From the NCBI GenBank assembly GCA_014730115.1, contig WJIU01000024.1, forward strand, positions 41,316 to 105,315: a DNA stretch of 64,000 bases, written 5' to 3'. Each line of letters opens with the position of its first letter. Position 1 is the first letter of the stretch. This document shows positions 11,913-26,963 of the stretch, piece by piece. The stretch comes from Candidatus Micrarchaeota archaeon. Its GTDB lineage: Archaea > Micrarchaeota > Micrarchaeia > Anstonellales > Bilamarchaeaceae. Under the pieces are notes generated by a model. The model made no database searches. It was not told where the DNA came from and worked only from the letters and a program-made list of their open reading frames with translations. The position numbers and the translations under genes were made by a program.

Positions 11913-13979
11913 ATGAGCACGATAATCAAGAAGTCGCCATGGATAAGCTTCTACAACGCCGGAGGGTGCATCCCAGGGGACACGATGATGATCTTCAGGG
12001 ATGGCGAGATACTGACGGCCAAGGAGATCGTTGAGGACATCCTTGGTGCCAGGGATTTCACCAGACTCGGGAAGAACGAGGTCCTTGCAAGCGAGATAGA
12101 AGCCAAGACCTTGTCATGGAACTGCACTTCGCCTAAGGAGGGCATCATCAGGACAGCCTACAAGCTACCTTCCGATGGCAAGCTCATAGAGATAAACACT
12201 TCCACCACGAGATTGAGGCTCACTCCAGACCATAAGGTGCTCATAGATACGGAGAACGGCCCGCAATGGAGGGAGGCGAAGGATCTGGCGAGGAACGACC
12301 ACCTCTATTCGCCGAGGAAACTGCATGTCGATGACAGCCGGAAGGCGCCCTGCATCCTGGAATGGCTCCCGGGGCCGTTCAAAGCGATATTCAAGGATGG
12401 CATCAAGGAGAGGATAAAGGATAGGCTCAAGAAAAGGTTCGGGAACCTCAGGAAAGCCTCCGATGCCTGCGGTATAAACTACAAGAGGTTGACGCATAGC
12501 GCAGAAGGGCTGAGCGTCAGGGAGCTGCGCTCAATATCCGAAAGAACCGGCATCAGCCTGGGTTGGATGTCGAGAATGCTCATCATGACCGTCAAGGGCA
12601 CACAGAGGTCAGGCATATCGATCCGGGACATCGACGGAGAACTCCTGTATGTCCTCGGGCTCATCGCCTCAGATGGCTGCATCTCATCCAATAAGGGAAG
12701 GAGAAGAAGCTACAGGATAAGGTTCGACAACAATGAGGGCGCCCTCATCTCCGGGTTCACAAGGATCATGGACAAATGGGCTCCCGGATCCAGGATGAAG
12801 GTAGAGAGGGCGGGCAGAGTCCACAGGGCGCATGTCTGCCATTACCCATTCGCATATCTTGCAACGCATATGGGATTGAGGGGATTGTCCAGGAGGGAGG
12901 ACCTGAGGGGCATCTTCCGCCTCCCTGAGAGCATGATTGCGTCTTTCCTGGCCGGTTTCTTCGACGGTGATGGCTCAGTGGTGATCGACAGGGGAGCCGG
13001 CAGGGATAAGCCGAGAATCAGCCTCGAGATAGCCATCAAGAATTACAAAACAGCCAAGATGACCCAACTCCTTCTTAAGAGGTTGGGCATCATCAGCAAG
13101 GTATCGGCCTCCGTGAATAGGAGCAGCTTCGGCACAAGAACAATGCATAGTGTCAGGATAACAACCCCATATGACATCCGCCTGTTCGCAGAGAAGGTGC
13201 CGGTTGCCCACCCCAAGAAAAAAGCAAAGCTCAAGCAAGTCAAAGGGATTTCAAACAAGAGCCGCCAAAGCACCGGTAAGCTCTACCATGCGCCCCTCAG
13301 ATGCGGCAGCATCATCAGACAGGCAAGGAAGGAGGCTGACCTTAGTTCTGAGAGCATATTCGATCCCGCACTCCTCAGCATGATAGAGAACGGGAAGAGG
13401 GTCGAGAAAGGAACGATCGAGAGGGTGTGCAAGAACCTTGAAGAAAGGACAGGAAGAACCGAGCGCACCAAGGAGCTGCGGAAGCTGATCTCTCTGGATG
13501 CCTATCTGGACCCGGTCAAGAGCATACGCGAGATTGCTTCAAAAGATGGGTTCGTGTATAATTTCAACATCGCTGAGACGCACAAATACATCCCAGAGGG
13601 GGCATTCGTGGTGGCCAATTGCAACGGCTGCACGCTGGAGGTATTTGCATGCTTCAATCCGAGATACGATGTTACTCGGTTCGGAATGGAGCTGAAATCA
13701 AGCGCAAAGCACGCCGATGTGCTCGTGATTTCAGGAATAGTGAACCGGCAGAATGTGAAAAGGCTGAAGAAGATATACGGGCAGCTGCCCGAGCCCAAGA
13801 GGGTGGTTGCAGTAGGGGCGTGCGCGGTTACCGGAGGGCTCTACCAGGGCTCTTATTCCCAGGTGGGACCGGTGGACAAGGTAATCCCGGTGGACGTTTA
13901 TGTCCCGGGATGCCCGCCCCGCCCGGAGTCAATAATAGACGGAATAAGGAAGTGTTTGGATGCTAAACGTAACAGATGA
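11913..13979 (+). CDS. Group-4 [NiFe] hydrogenase small subunit (NuoB/EchC-like) interrupted by a 551-aa intein
   Basis: The exteins are 18 aa (ending ISFYNAGG) and 119 aa (starting CNGCTLEV, then GACAVTGG and VPGCPPRPE). Spliced together they restore the GxCNGC proximal-cluster motif. The intervening 551 aa carry intein blocks and two LAGLIDADG motifs. Confidence 0.85.
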   Translation: MSTIIKKSPWISFYNAGGCIPGDTMMIFRDGEILTAKEIVEDILGARDFTRLGKNEVLASEIEAKTLSWNCTSPKEGIIRTAYKLPSDGKLIEINTSTTRLRLTPDHKVLIDTENGPQWREAKDLARNDHLYSPRKLHVDDSRKAPCILEWLPGPFKAIFKDGIKERIKDRLKKRFGNLRKASDACGINYKRLTHSAEGLSVRELRSISERTGISLGWMSRMLIMTVKGTQRSGISIRDIDGELLYVLGLIASDGCISSNKGRRRSYRIRFDNNEGALISGFTRIMDKWAPGSRMKVERAGRVHRAHVCHYPFAYLATHMGLRGLSRREDLRGIFRLPESMIASFLAGFFDGDGSVVIDRGAGRDKPRISLEIAIKNYKTAKMTQLLLKRLGIISKVSASVNRSSFGTRTMHSVRITTPYDIRLFAEKVPVAHPKKKAKLKQVKGISNKSRQSTGKLYHAPLRCGSIIRQARKEADLSSESIFDPALLSMIENGKRVEKGTIERVCKNLEERTGRTERTKELRKLISLDAYLDPVKSIREIASKDGFVYNFNIAETHKYIPEGAFVVANCNGCTLEVFACFNPRYDVTRFGMELKSSAKHADVLVISGIVNRQNVKRLKKIYGQLPEPKRVVAVGACAVTGGLYQGSYSQVGPVDKVIPVDVYVPGCPPRPESIIDGIRKCLDAKRNR
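11967..13619 (+). other. Intein with LAGLIDADG homing-endonuclease domain inside the hydrogenase small subunit
   Basis: Block A is CIPGDTMMIF, block B is RLTPDHKVLID. Dodecapeptide motifs are LYVLGLIASDGCI and ASFLAGFFDGDGSV. Blocks F/G are VYNFNIAETHKYIPEGAFVVAN, followed by a +1 Cys (CNGC). Confidence 0.8.
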
Positions 13980-19416: not shown

Positions 19417-19762
19417 AGGAGTAAATCGGGCTTTGTTATTTTAAAGAAACATGCAGCCTGGAAGATGAGGCCCGCTTCTTTTGAACCCAGAAACTGCAAA
19501 AATAAACATCCTCTATAACAGGATATGTGCAAATCCGTCATTAGACGTCTAAAAATATGCAAACTATTAAAAATGTGGCCTAAGTTTATACAGACTCTGC
19601 GGGTTTGCAGAATCCTCTGGTCTGGGATACGGTCTTGTAAGGAAATGGCTGAACGTACAAGTCCGGTTATTGTCCTAGATTAGAGCCATCGTTTTATGGC
19701 TTCGGCTGTAAATCCCCGCAGGCAACTTTTCTTATTTTAAAATACTCATATTTTTGGGTAGG

Positions 19763-20083
19763 TCAAAAAACCCAGCTTATGTCGTAAGCCAGAAGAACCA
19801 GTATTGCAACCAGATGCAAAAGACCAACAAAAAGAAATCCTTTACGGTTTTTTCCCAGAATGCTGTTGCTGAGTTCCGGGACCGGCTTTATGGACTGGTT
19901 ATAAAAAAACCAAAAGCAGAAGTTCATAATTCCCCCGCCAGTTGTGGGGATGACTATGCTATAGGGAAAATCAACCCGGGCCAACAGCACGTAAGCAAGC
20001 CCCAGGAACAACGGGGATGCAAGAACAAGAATGTTGAGGACAGCTCTTTGTCTGGAAATCATCCGGGAATAATTGATAACCAC
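19763..20083 (-). CDS. hypothetical small membrane protein
   Basis: 106 aa with 2-3 predicted TM segments, in an otherwise AT-rich gene-poor interval. It could be spurious. Confidence 0.25.
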   Translation of the reverse strand: MVINYSRMISRQRAVLNILVLASPLFLGLAYVLLARVDFPYSIVIPTTGGGIMNFCFWFFYNQSIKPVPELSNSILGKNRKGFLFVGLLHLVAILVLLAYDISWVF

Positions 20084-20246
20084 AGCTTATATAACAGTTG
20101 CATAGGCAGAAGTGCTGCTTCCGCACATATGCGGGAAAGCGGTGCTGATGCGGTTTGTTCATACTTGTTCACGCCAGTTCCTGATAGCATTTATATTCCG
20201 TTCATGTGTCATTATTTCGGCCTTGGGGCCGGATGGAGGTGTTATC

Positions 20247-20672
20247 ATGAACAGGACGAAATTTTTGGGCATCGTGCTCGGATGCATCGGTGTAGTGCTT
20301 TTGGGGGGAGGCATCTATCTGGCGGTGTCCTATGTGGGGGCTACGATGAATGCAATGATTAATTTTTTTACTACAAACAGTGGTGCACTATCAAGCTGCG
20401 GCATAAGCATTCCGGATGAAATCGCTGCACTGAAAGACCAGGTAGCAACGACCATTCTTCCGGGGCTTTATCTGGGCGTTCCGCTTGCCGTAATTGTGAT
20501 ATCCGCAGTAATGTTTGCCGGCGGCTACTACTATGGCAGGGGCTCTTACCGGGACCAGCTTGACAGGAAAATGAAGCAGGAGGAAGAACTGAAAGAGGAA
20601 ATTGAACGCCGGATAAGCGAGAAAAAGCGGAAGCCTGCTAAAGAAGAGCCTGCAGAAGAGGAGGAAGAGTAA
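20247..20672 (+). CDS. hypothetical membrane protein with charged C-terminal tail
   Basis: Start chosen at MNRTKFLGIVLGCIGVVLLGG (TM 1). A second TM and a KE-rich tail follow. It sits in frame within the longer ORF 20112..20672. Confidence 0.45.
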   Translation: MNRTKFLGIVLGCIGVVLLGGGIYLAVSYVGATMNAMINFFTTNSGALSSCGISIPDEIAALKDQVATTILPGLYLGVPLAVIVISAVMFAGGYYYGRGSYRDQLDRKMKQEEELKEEIERRISEKKRKPAKEEPAEEEEE

Positions 20673-20724
20673 TCTTTTTTCTTGATAAGAAATCATGATG
20701 CGGGACATCAGACTTCAAGTATAA

Positions 20725-20757
20725 GTGCTCCCGCCGGGATTCGAACCCGGGGTCAGG
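20725..20757 (-). repeat. Partial direct repeat of the tRNA-Glu 3' end (T-arm + acceptor 3' strand), att-like
   Basis: The minus strand reads GACCCCGGGTTCGAATCCCGGCGGGAGCAC. It is identical, apart from one extra C, to the 3' 31 nt of the tRNA-Glu at 21488-21518. No complementary 5' acceptor strand is nearby, so it is not a tRNA. Confidence 0.5.
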
Positions 20758-20844
20758 ACCACTTACAAAAAATGCAATATCCAGCATGTTTGTACAGTAA
20801 TTTGTATGTGGAGCATTTATCATTTTAGATTCTAACAATCAGGT

Positions 20845-21108
20845 TCATTTGTATATTTTTTTCCTGTGGCCTAAAGATCTTATGAAAACAGTTTTTTCTT
20901 TCTGCATGATATCTGCAATTATCCTGTAATCTCCAACTCTCAACTTATATTCCTCTCTTCCAGCAAGTCTTTTAAAGAAATGAATTGGATTTTTCTGTGT
21001 CTCATTTATCTTTTCAATTATTCTTTTTGCCGTATTGTTATCAAGTTTTTTCAATTGATACAAAGATTCCTCAGAATAGACAACCTTGAACATCTTACTC
21101 AATTCCAA
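20845..21108 (-). CDS. relE: RelE/ParE-family type II toxin
   Basis: 87 aa. MFKVVYSEESLYQLKKLD...YKLRVGDYRIIADI...TVFIRSLGHRKKIY fits the RelE/StbE pattern. Confidence 0.7.
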   Translation of the reverse strand: MELSKMFKVVYSEESLYQLKKLDNNTAKRIIEKINETQKNPIHFFKRLAGREEYKLRVGDYRIIADIMQKEKTVFIRSLGHRKKIYK

Positions 21109-21337
21109 GTTGCTTCTTCACTTCTTCCACAGAATATGTTCTTCCGTGTTTAATGTCAGATAAAGATCTGAGCAAAGATGCTCTGAATTCATCATTATAT
21201 TCTCCTTCATCATCCCCAGATGGTACTAAATCTATCAACATTCTCAGTAGCTCATCATATGTCTCTCTTTTGCTGGTTTTAAGTCTGGAAAGCATCTCTC
21301 TTGTCTCTGGGCTTATTTGAATTGAAGTATATGCCAT
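21095..21337 (-). CDS. Antitoxin partner of RelE (small acidic alpha-helical protein)
   Basis: An 80-aa ORF directly upstream of the toxin, overlapping it by 14 nt, as is typical for TA operons. Confidence 0.55.
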   Translation of the reverse strand: MAYTSIQISPETREMLSRLKTSKRETYDELLRMLIDLVPSGDDEGEYNDEFRASLLRSLSDIKHGRTYSVEEVKKQLGIE

Positions 21338-21487
21338 AAAATCACTATAGATATATTATAGATTTATCTATAAAAGCCTTCCTATTCCAGTTTCAATTAC
21401 TAGATAGCTGTCATCATCATGTCCGTACTAGAAATCCTAATTATTTCTGGTTTTCCGCACCCTCCCTCTTGCGACGTGGAGAATGAG

Positions 21488-21696
21488 TGCTCCCGCCGGG
21501 ATTCGAACCCGGGTCTACGGAGTTCCCTGAATTTTTAGGAAGCCGTTTTGATCGAACTTTTCCTAAAAGTTCGTGAGAGTCCGTTATCCTTGACCGGGAT
21601 GTCCAACCTTTTTGACCTTTTCTTCCCCAGGGCTTTTTCGTGAACGTTTTTGCCCTTCGTTTGTAGCAGTCAAAAAGGTTCCTAGACTACAGGAGC
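21488..21696 (-). tRNA. tRNA-Glu (anticodon CUC) with two putative introns (D-loop ~84 nt, anticodon-loop ~51 nt)
   Basis: Minus-strand parts are: acceptor GCTCCTG/CGGGAGC (one G.U pair), TAGTCTAG D-arm start, GGAT D-stem 3' strand, anticodon arm ACGGA-CTCTCA|intron|C-TCCGT, variable AGAC, T-arm CCGGG-TTCGAAT-CCCGG and discriminator A. The intron between positions 37 and 38 contains a strong hairpin (CGAACTTTT-AGG-AAAAGTTCG). Confidence 0.5.
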
Positions 21697-21745
21697 TTGT
21701 TTCTATCTTTCAGCAATAGGATTTAAAAAATTAGAGAAAAGGGAA

Positions 21746-24913: not shown

Positions 24914-25096
24914 AGCGCCGAGAGGGAGATTTGAACTCCCAATCCCAAAGGGACACGCTTACCAGCAGGATTCCGCCAGAAGGCGGATTTCCAGGCCTGC
25001 GCTTCAGCCAACACAAAGTCAGTCAGAATGTGCGCACTACCGGATTTCACGCCCTGCAAAAGAAATATCAAATGCAGGACTTTATGCGATCTCGGC
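24914..25096 (-). ncRNA. Putative intron-containing tRNA or other structured RNA (unresolved)
   Basis: The minus strand shows a canonical T-arm GGGAG-TTCAAAT-CTCCC followed by TCTCGGC-G. A perfect complementary 7-mer GCCGAGA lies 183 nt upstream. A class-II-like variable hairpin (TCCC-TTT-GGGA) precedes the T-arm. The D and anticodon arms could not be assigned by eye. The locus is a 290-nt divergent intergenic region. Confidence 0.3.
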
Positions 25097-26859: not shown

Positions 26860-26963
26860 TGCGGTTGCCGGGATTTGAACCCGGGTCGCGAGCTTGGGAA
26901 GCTCGAATCCTGCCATTGCCCTGAACCCCTTTTACAGAAAGGCCCGTCTAGACTACAACCGCT
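26860..26963 (-). tRNA. tRNA-Gly (anticodon CCC) with a putative ~30-nt intron in the D-loop
   Basis: Minus-strand parts are: acceptor GCGGTTG/CAACCGC (7 bp perfect), TAGTCTAG, anticodon arm CGAGC-TTCCCAA-GCTCG, variable CGAC, T-arm CCGGG-TTCAAAT-CCCGG and discriminator A. Removing ACGGGCC...CAGGGC gives D-loop AGAATGGCA and D-stem GTCT/GGAT. Confidence 0.55.

Follow-up and report, generated by a model that had tools for sequence, protein, structure and literature searches.

A two-intron tRNA-Glu(CUC) gene in Candidatus Micrarchaeota and a toxin-antitoxin insert, probably derived from integration, at its 3′ end

A stretch of 64,000 nucleotides from contig WJIU01000024.1 of a Candidatus Micrarchaeota archaeon (hereafter the window) carries on its minus strand a tRNA-Glu(CUC) gene with two introns. 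The 3′ end of this gene is repeated 762 bp away, and the DNA enclosed by the two copies holds a toxin-antitoxin (TA) pair of the RelE/ParE type. We regard the locus as a composite: a disrupted tRNA gene to which, probably, an integration-derived insert has been added.

The tRNA-Glu(CUC) gene and its two introns

The gene lies at 21488–21696 (−), where the initial annotation had placed all parts of a tRNA-Glu; direct reading, in-silico splicing and intron-less orthologues agree with this placement. Exon 1, GCTCCTGTAGTCTAG (21682–21696, −), supplies tRNA positions 1–15, that is, the 5′ strand of the acceptor, the 5′ strand of the D-stem, A14 and G15. It is followed by intron 1 of 83 nt (21599–21681, −), located in the D-loop between positions 15 and 16 and recognised by folding, by an inverted repeat and by homologous introns in relatives. 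Exon 2, CCCGGTCAAGGATAACGGACTCTCA (21574–21598, −), contains the 3′ part of the D-loop, the 3′ strand of the D-stem, the 5′ strand of the anticodon stem and the anticodon loop through A37, with CUC as the anticodon. Intron 2 of 51 nt (21523–21573, −) sits at the canonical position 37/38, as indicated by folding and by the relatives. Exon 3 (21488–21522, −) starts with C38 and continues with the 3′ strand of the anticodon stem, the variable loop, the T-arm, the 3′ strand of the acceptor and A73; CCA is not encoded. A TATA-like box, TTTTTTAAAT (21721–21730, −), is read directly 25–34 nt upstream of the tRNA 5′ end and, judged by position alone, is presumably the archaeal promoter of the gene.

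Splicing in silico yields a product of 76 nt, for which the call of ARAGORN is tRNA-Glu(ctc), with a normal cloverleaf and all four arms. The gene as it stands in the DNA is detected neither by ARAGORN in default mode nor by Rfam at the gathering threshold. With one intron allowed, ARAGORN proposes an implausible tRNA-Ser(GCT) with an intron of 132 nt; this model was rejected because its D-arm is broken and the intron-less orthologues are tRNA-Glu(CUC).

Exon 2 was used as query in two scans. The scan of one genome per species returned two metagenome-assembled genomes (MAGs) of Candidatus Micrarchaeota (L001, L002), and the scan of metagenomes returned two further loci (L003, L004). In L001/L004 and in L002 the tRNA-Glu(CUC) gene is intron-less and reads GCTCC(C/T)GTAGTCTAG-CCCGGTCAAGGATAACGGACTCTCA-CTCCGTGGACC..., with the junctions ...GTCTAG/CCCGGTCAAGG... 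and ...CTCTCA/CTCCGT..., which are the same, base for base, as the junctions predicted for the window. Since the spliced product of the window equals these orthologues across both junctions, the introns fall at 37/38 and, in the D-loop, at 15/16. A register of 16/17 for intron 1, derived from the bulge GGA in the minimum free energy (MFE) fold, would give the D-loop two additional bases and was rejected because the intron-less orthologues lack them. As far as sequence analysis reaches, the two-intron tRNA-Glu(CUC) gene is established. The D-loop intron and the 37/38 intron had both been proposed in the initial annotation, and they are now backed by the intron-less orthologues, by syntenic orthologues that carry introns and by the bulge-helix-bulge (BHB) geometry of the splice sites.

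Both exon–intron boundaries have this geometry, that of intron 1 in a relaxed form. In the MFE fold, intron 2 forms a strict hBHBh′ motif, ACGGA-CUCU-CA^C ... AGGG-AA^C-UCCGU, made up of the anticodon stem ACGGA/UCCGU, a 4-bp helix CUCU/AGGG and the 3-nt bulges CA^C and AA^C; folding extends it by an inner helix GAA.UUUUAGGAA/UUCCUAAAA.UUC. The 9-bp hairpin that had been noticed within intron 2 was found at 21573–21553 (CGAACTTTT-AGG-AAAAGTTCG as DNA, CGAACUUUU-AGG-AAAAGUUCG as RNA), and it competes with the BHB inner helix. The geometry of intron 2 is kept in all relatives, and one-sided changes leave CUCU paired (AGGG versus GGAG). In intron 1, whose geometry likewise appears in the MFE fold, the 5′ strand of the D-stem, GUCU (10–13), pairs with intronic GGAC over 4 bp; the bulges, of 3 nt each, are AG^G and AU^C. 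Folding and an inverted-repeat search both give a perfect inner helix of 12 bp, AACCUUUUUGAC/GUCAAAAAGGUU. The motif is of the relaxed HBh′ type because its 3′ bulge has no closing outer helix.

The start of intron 2 carries a motif of its own, AACUUUU(A/G)G(G/A)AAAAGUUnGAUCAAAAC, which is kept in the window (21523–21573) and in four relatives (L005, L008, L011, L014). It has survived in introns that have otherwise diverged or lengthened to 126–140 nt, and it can pair either in a local hairpin or with the 3′ end of the intron. The motif has no match among known RNA families. A search of the introns and the insert for C/D-box or other Rfam families gave nothing credible.

Syntenic loci were reached by homologues of the 336-aa neighbour of the tRNA-Glu, which is NCBI protein GF318_02820 of a Candidatus Micrarchaeota archaeon, encoded on a contig of 134 kb; an exact look-up of the SHMT protein of the window gave no hit. 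The gene order at these loci is a helix-turn-helix/DUF7343 protein, a 306-aa protein, a protein of about 100 aa, an optional open reading frame (ORF) of 51–53 aa and then the tRNA. A few kb upstream, most of them carry genes for RtcB and archease (L005, L008, L009) or for RtcB alone (L011, L012). Both introns are present at the same positions in all loci from L003 to L015 that cover the region, comprising five distinct sequences. Exon 1 is the same in the window, L003, L005, L008 and L011; GGACAU directly ahead of exon 2 is invariant among the syntenic orthologues; and the inner helix of intron 1 has undergone compensatory changes among relatives, for example from A-U to G-C, from C-G to U-A and from U-A to C-G. 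Intron 1 of the window is 69–74% identical to that of L003, L005, L008 and L011 and 45% identical to that of L014. Intron 2 is 80–81% identical to its counterparts in L005 and L008. The adjacent 336-aa protein, in comparison, is only 38–53% identical to its homologues in these relatives. Both introns are inherited, and their sequences are far better conserved than the neighbouring proteins.

Two relatives differ in intron number. The orthologous tRNA-Glu(CUC) of L003 (6553–6797) has three introns, the third of which, 20 nt long, interrupts the T-loop, midway within the part of the gene that the window has in two copies. In L026 (10552–10728, −), intron 1 is absent and an intron 2 of about 100 nt is retained; exon 1 is different at two acceptor positions, suggesting either that the intron was lost or that the gene had its 5′ part replaced. 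Together with the intron-less genes in L001/L004 and L002 and the window-type loci, this gives zero, one, two or three introns in one and the same gene.

The window contains a second gene with a D-loop intron and a tRNA-like gene that is probably disrupted as well. In the former, a tRNA-Gly(CCC) gene at 26860–26962 (−), an intron some 29 nt long interrupts the D-loop immediately past GTCTAG(A). ARAGORN returns it as a truncated call of 70 nt in default mode and as a miscalled tRNA-Leu when introns are allowed, and it is missed at the Rfam gathering threshold. The tRNA-like gene, at 24915–25096 (−), measures about 180 nt, has the acceptor GCCGAGA/TCTCGGC and the T-arm GGGAGTTCAAATCTCCC, and appears only at a relaxed ARAGORN threshold; it is probably a long-arm tRNA, perhaps tRNA-Ser, with one or more introns.

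For the expression of the tRNA-Glu gene, the following course is plausible. The pre-tRNA-Glu(CUC) would be transcribed from its own TATA-like promoter, the archaeal splicing endonuclease would cut at the two BHB sites, relaxed HBh′ at 15/16 and strict hBHBh′ at 37/38, the exons would be ligated, by analogy by RtcB, and CCA would then be added. Judged by the spacing of its locus tags from GF318_02800 to GF318_02820, the public record would have space for no more than a single feature between the genes of the antitoxin and of the 336-aa protein, so that either the tRNA-Glu or a 98-aa ORF may be unannotated.

The repeated tRNA 3′ end and the enclosed cassette

The tRNA-Glu gene has its 3′ end duplicated exactly over 28 nt and over 41 nt at 88% identity. 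The proximal, attL-like copy (21486–21513, −) comprises the T-arm, the 3′ strand of the acceptor, A73 and 2 nt of trailer; the distal, attR-like copy (20724–20751, −) is a displaced tRNA 3′ fragment. The 28 nt thus consist of 26 nt of tRNA and 2 nt of trailer. In none of 100 shuffles did the 23-nt repeat core find any match. The initial annotation had described a recurrence of 31 nt at 20725–20757, 730 bp away and without a 5′ partner. The duplication is real and no 5′ half for the distal copy was found in the window; exact identity, however, is confined to 28 nt at 20724–20751 and the measured spacing is 762 bp. The 31 nt were slightly too long for exact identity because an indel of 1 nt sits before GAC. 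When the tRNA-Glu of L026 is taken as reference, 20721–20751 is identical at 31 of 31 positions to its 3′ end plus a 5-nt trailer. The repeat extends from the 5′ side of the T-stem to 2–5 nt beyond the tRNA end.

An imperfect inverted repeat, some 86 nt long, has the distal copy at its tip; the left arm of this inverted repeat, GGAUAUUGCAUUUUUUGUAAGUGGUCCUG, mirrors the acceptor 3′ strand and the trailer. Folding predicts a long hairpin here (20700–20790, −; z = −3.8), between the convergent genes for the toxin and a membrane protein and with the duplicated T-arm at its tip. To rate this hairpin, the T-arm and the right flank were kept fixed and the left flank was either shuffled or exchanged for random genomic flanks: its −38 kcal/mol was reached by none of 2000 shuffled left flanks and by 25 of 2000 random genomic ones. 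The inverted repeat fits the context of a symmetric recombinase core site around a crossover in the T-loop. It also fits a hairpin which, together with a run of six T, ends the TA operon between convergent genes.

The DNA between the copies has a GC content of 31–39%, compared to 45–55% around it. Next to the tRNA there is an insert-specific spacer of about 100 nt (21388–21485, −) for which no homologue was found, apart from its first 12 nt or so, which are like the native tRNA trailer of L026. It is followed by a region (21338–21387, −) with the box TTTTATAG and the inverted repeats TATAGAT..ATCTATA, seen by alignment to be kept with the cassette elsewhere and presumably the TA promoter and operator. 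The predicted antitoxin of 80 aa (21095–21337, −) may be ribbon-helix-helix-like and matches DUF7557 (E = 8.7e-6, 25.5 bits against a cut-off of 25), with a weak RelB_ParD similarity at the C terminus. The ATG of the 82-aa toxin of the RelE/ParE family (20845–21093, −) comes 1 nt past the antitoxin stop; it matches ParE_toxin PF05016 (E = 6.7e-11, 43.1 bits against a cut-off of 23), and its match to the NCBIfam model RelE_StbE is under the cut-off. The enclosed pair had been read as relE and an antitoxin from the letters, and this reading is borne out by the two ORFs. A second spacer (20752–20844, −), from the toxin stop to the distal repeat, contains the run of six T and the left arm of the hairpin.

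This cassette is found elsewhere. Relatives of the toxin are 88–94% identical, and the cassette DNA from promoter through toxin coding sequence (21385–20847) shares 86% identity with the copy in L016/L017, in which an arginase gene comes before it, and 82% with the one in L018; in five further loci (L019–L023) it lies between other housekeeping genes. The homology stops sharply at both borders. Housekeeping proteins common to the window and the cassette-bearing loci, in comparison, are only about 37–40% identical. A cassette that is 86% identical at unrelated Micrarchaeota loci must have moved horizontally. Between the cassette and the two repeats remain about 100 nt and about 90 nt of unmatched AT-rich DNA. 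L016 and L017 are independent assemblies with the closest cassette, and both contigs break about 85 nt past the toxin stop. This is approximately where the tRNA-derived repeat begins in the window, and a repeat may lie there too.

L026 is syntenic with the window on both sides of the slot, with the 306-aa, 110-aa and 51-aa genes on one side and, on the other, a 141-aa membrane protein (81% identical), a Na/Ca exchanger and a Lon-like ATPase (79% identical). Its slot, from the tRNA-Glu to the convergent membrane-protein gene, is occupied by a glycosyltransferase gene and has no TA pair; near the membrane-protein gene, only the 9-mer GCGGGAGCA recalls the tRNA end. Among the other relatives with downstream sequence, the TA insert is absent and the tRNA 3′ end has no clean second copy. 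The downstream DNA of more distant relatives differs from lineage to lineage, which makes this 3′ end of the tRNA a recurrent breakpoint and a slot for cargo. An empty site would join the tRNA end directly to ...CTTATACTTGAAG, and no strictly empty site was found among the relatives compared. The comparison with related genomes that the initial annotation had called for consequently shows a slot that differs in L026 and lacks the insert in the others, without giving a clean empty site.

A copy of the acceptor end in L003 (7116–7131, 14 of 16 positions) and the 9-mer of L026 (at about 9300) were considered as older scars and set aside as too short to rely on. In L014, a T-arm-like stretch (2840–2865) lies downstream of the orthologous tRNA-Glu. 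Each of the short fragments in these three loci could be the scar of an earlier integration, yet none is long enough for certainty.

The membrane-protein gene (20247–20672, +) is downstream of and convergent with the tRNA in the window and in L026. In L003 (5786–6310) it is upstream and on the same strand, which speaks for a rearrangement around the tRNA. The interval of about 830 bp next to this gene in the window (19417–20246) is unusual for a compact genome; no convincing gene and no family match was found in it, and the corresponding interval of L026 holds three extra genes. At some distance, at 11913–13979 (+), a NuoB-like (Oxidored_q6) gene is split by an intein with a LAGLIDADG homing-endonuclease domain.

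Origin of the insert

Site-specific recombination with the part of a tRNA gene from the T-loop to the 3′ end is the classical way in which genomic islands enter such genes, and the T-loop is a classical sublocation for integrases. We consider it rather likely that the insert is the scar, or a miniature island, left by site-specific integration at such a T-loop-to-3′-end site. Five lines of evidence make this footprint the best reading of the locus: the limits of the repeat, the foreign composition of the enclosed DNA, the mobile TA cargo, the different cargo in the same slot of L026 and the symmetric context of the distal copy. The initial annotation had arrived at the same reading and had left the choice between a decayed island that kept its addiction module and a TA cassette captured at an attachment (att) site; it may be either.

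The events would then have been as follows. In the most likely course, site-specific recombination would have joined a small circular element to the T-loop-to-3′-end part of the tRNA gene, leaving a regenerated tRNA 3′ end and a displaced copy at the two ends of the insert. A regenerated tRNA and a displaced fragment are indeed the marks of island ends (PMC4383910). The recombinase would be gone, either because it was lost or because it had acted in trans, and what remained would be a self-contained RelE/ParE-DUF7557 cassette with its own promoter and operator. Post-segregational killing by the TA pair would oppose deletion between the repeats, and the distal copy may now also act as a hairpin which, with a T-run, closes off the TA operon.

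Several observations weigh against an integrative origin. An integrase or recombinase domain was not found in any ORF of at least 180 aa in the window. In the viral contigs of IMG/VR, neither the repeat core nor a relative of the toxin was found; phage and plasmid collections gave no match to the 2-kb region, and no element-borne attP was found. At eight other loci the cassette has no flanking direct repeats or tRNA fragments, so that arrival of the cassette and duplication of the tRNA end may be separate events. The distal copy is pristine (28 of 28 positions), though presumably non-functional, which requires a recent event, gene conversion or selection. Finally, the proximal copy, too, has a trailer that is like the native one of L026 for about 12 nt, and a simple attP/attB picture predicts no such likeness. 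That the insertion was integrase-mediated, recombinase step included, is something we infer, because an integrase, a clean empty site and an attP are missing and the cassette occurs elsewhere without repeats.

The best surviving alternative does without an integrase. A DNA fragment, circular or linear, bearing a short stretch of tRNA-Glu could have been inserted by homologous or microhomology-mediated recombination (Campbell-type), or a local duplication could have arisen first, with the TA cassette landing later. This is unlikely, yet it deserves to be taken seriously: it accommodates the lack of a recombinase among the ORFs surveyed and the fact that the cassette reaches many loci alone and without repeats, and a local duplication would leave both copies with the likeness to the native L026 trailer that they indeed keep. 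It does not account well for the limits of identity, which are sharp and coincide with the 5′ edge of the T-stem and the tRNA end, for the roughly 190 nt of AT-rich DNA inside the repeats that belong neither to the cassette nor to the native locus, or for the left arm of the distal copy, which mirrors the right arm as in a core site. Moreover, 28–31 nt are short for homologous recombination.

A different proposal concerns the present function of the distal copy and is compatible with an integrative origin. The copy could be kept as an RNA element, a tRNA-like minihelix or long hairpin that serves termination, stability or 3′ processing of the mRNA of the TA pair or of the membrane protein. Its full preservation at 28 of 28 positions and the hairpin of −38 kcal/mol, unmatched by the 2000 flank shuffles and with the run of six T in its 5′ arm between convergent genes, would agree with such a role. 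So would a sub-threshold match to mascRNA, in which an acceptor-like heptamer GGUCCUG stands opposite CGGGAGC with 6 of 7 positions. The mascRNA score in Rfam, however, is 24.6 against a required 42.5 bits (E = 0.18), the TA cassettes at other loci do without any such element, and 1.25% of random genomic flanks fold as well. We therefore rate an RNA element as improbable.

The remaining two proposals have very little to recommend them. Nanoarchaeum has split tRNA-Glu genes with common halves. With this precedent, and in a lineage with heavily disrupted tRNA genes, the distal fragment might supply the 3′ half of another tRNA-Glu, split or trans-spliced, with the 5′ half located elsewhere; against this stand the lack of a 5′ half in the window, the sequence GGUCCUGACC upstream of the T-stem, which gives no proper register of anticodon stem and variable loop, an upstream arm that pairs in cis with the acceptor 3′ strand and so provides no trans-pairing leader, and a 5′ edge without a BHB motif. 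An assembly artefact, in which the contig would be chimeric at a repeated tRNA sequence, might be suspected since the source is a MAG and the contigs L016 and L017 both end about 85 nt past the toxin stop, but it is just as far-fetched, with a repeat of 28–31 nt that is below usual assembly k-mers and an order of tRNA-Glu and convergent membrane-protein gene that is found independently in L026.

Wider meaning and comparison with known systems

If integration is accepted as the origin, the insert is an ordinary case of a tRNA gene that served as a landing pad, with the addiction module as the last survivor of the inserted segment.

It is tempting to go further and to see in this one tRNA-Glu the record of a contest between integrating elements and tRNA introns across sister lineages. 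In the window, exon 3 is the one long stretch that the two introns do not interrupt, and a miniature element with att site and TA pair but no integrase sits exactly there. In L003, the third intron divides the T-loop halfway along the 28-nt core and would destroy the attachment site. Disruption of tRNA genes is said to shield them against integration, an idea that goes by the names of Randau and Soll, and a causal contest at this gene would be a natural test case for it. It would show, moreover, that a unit of 0.76 kb, composed of an att site and an addiction module, is able to last or to move while its recombinase comes in trans. This is a doubtful speculation at present. On firmer ground, the series of zero to three introns in one tRNA gene is a dated series that is useful for the study of intron gain and loss and of splicing-endonuclease specificity. 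It should also be considered that an essential tRNA-Glu was missed by default ARAGORN and by Rfam; tRNAs "missing" from DPANN inventories may be undetected multi-intron genes.

The insert has its closest counterparts in the islands and proviruses that are integrated at tRNA genes by tyrosine integrases, as catalogued by Islander (PMC4383910), an established kind. The likeness lies in the intact tRNA with a distal repeat that reaches from the T-stem to past the 3′ end, in the AT-rich foreign DNA, in the addiction module as cargo and in the content of the slot, which varies among relatives. The window differs from them in that the bracket measures only 762 bp and holds the TA pair only, with no integrase among the ORFs surveyed and no attP-bearing element. 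The cassette itself, a putative TA module, resembles type II systems of RelE/ParE toxins with ribbon-helix-helix antitoxins in its antitoxin-first operon with a gap of 1 nt, its ParE_toxin domain, its palindromic, operator-like promoter and its patchy, mobile distribution. Its antitoxin belongs to DUF7557, in contrast to the characterised RelB and ParD families of the known type II systems.

For the tRNA gene, the obvious comparison is Candidatus Micrarchaeum acidiphilum ARMAN-2, a member of the same phylum. In this organism, 56% of the tRNA genes are disrupted and the epsilon-2 splicing endonuclease (EndA) cuts relaxed motifs, as stated in PMC3239211. Endonucleases able to cut relaxed motifs are of the epsilon-2 or alpha-beta type; EndA is not among the genes of the window. 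The window shares with the multi-intron tRNA genes of ARMAN-2 and the Thermoproteales the combination of an intron at 37/38 with one at a non-canonical site and of a strict hBHBh′ with a relaxed, HBh′-type motif. It differs from examples in that paper, T-loop introns of 13–25 nt, by the 83-nt intron in the D-loop, the position 15/16 and the tRNA-Glu. Disrupted tRNA genes and an endonuclease of broad specificity are thus already on record for the phylum (PMC3239211), and the gene described here is a further case of an established kind. Both features of the locus, the disrupted tRNA gene and the tRNA-flanked insert, are members of well-known kinds.

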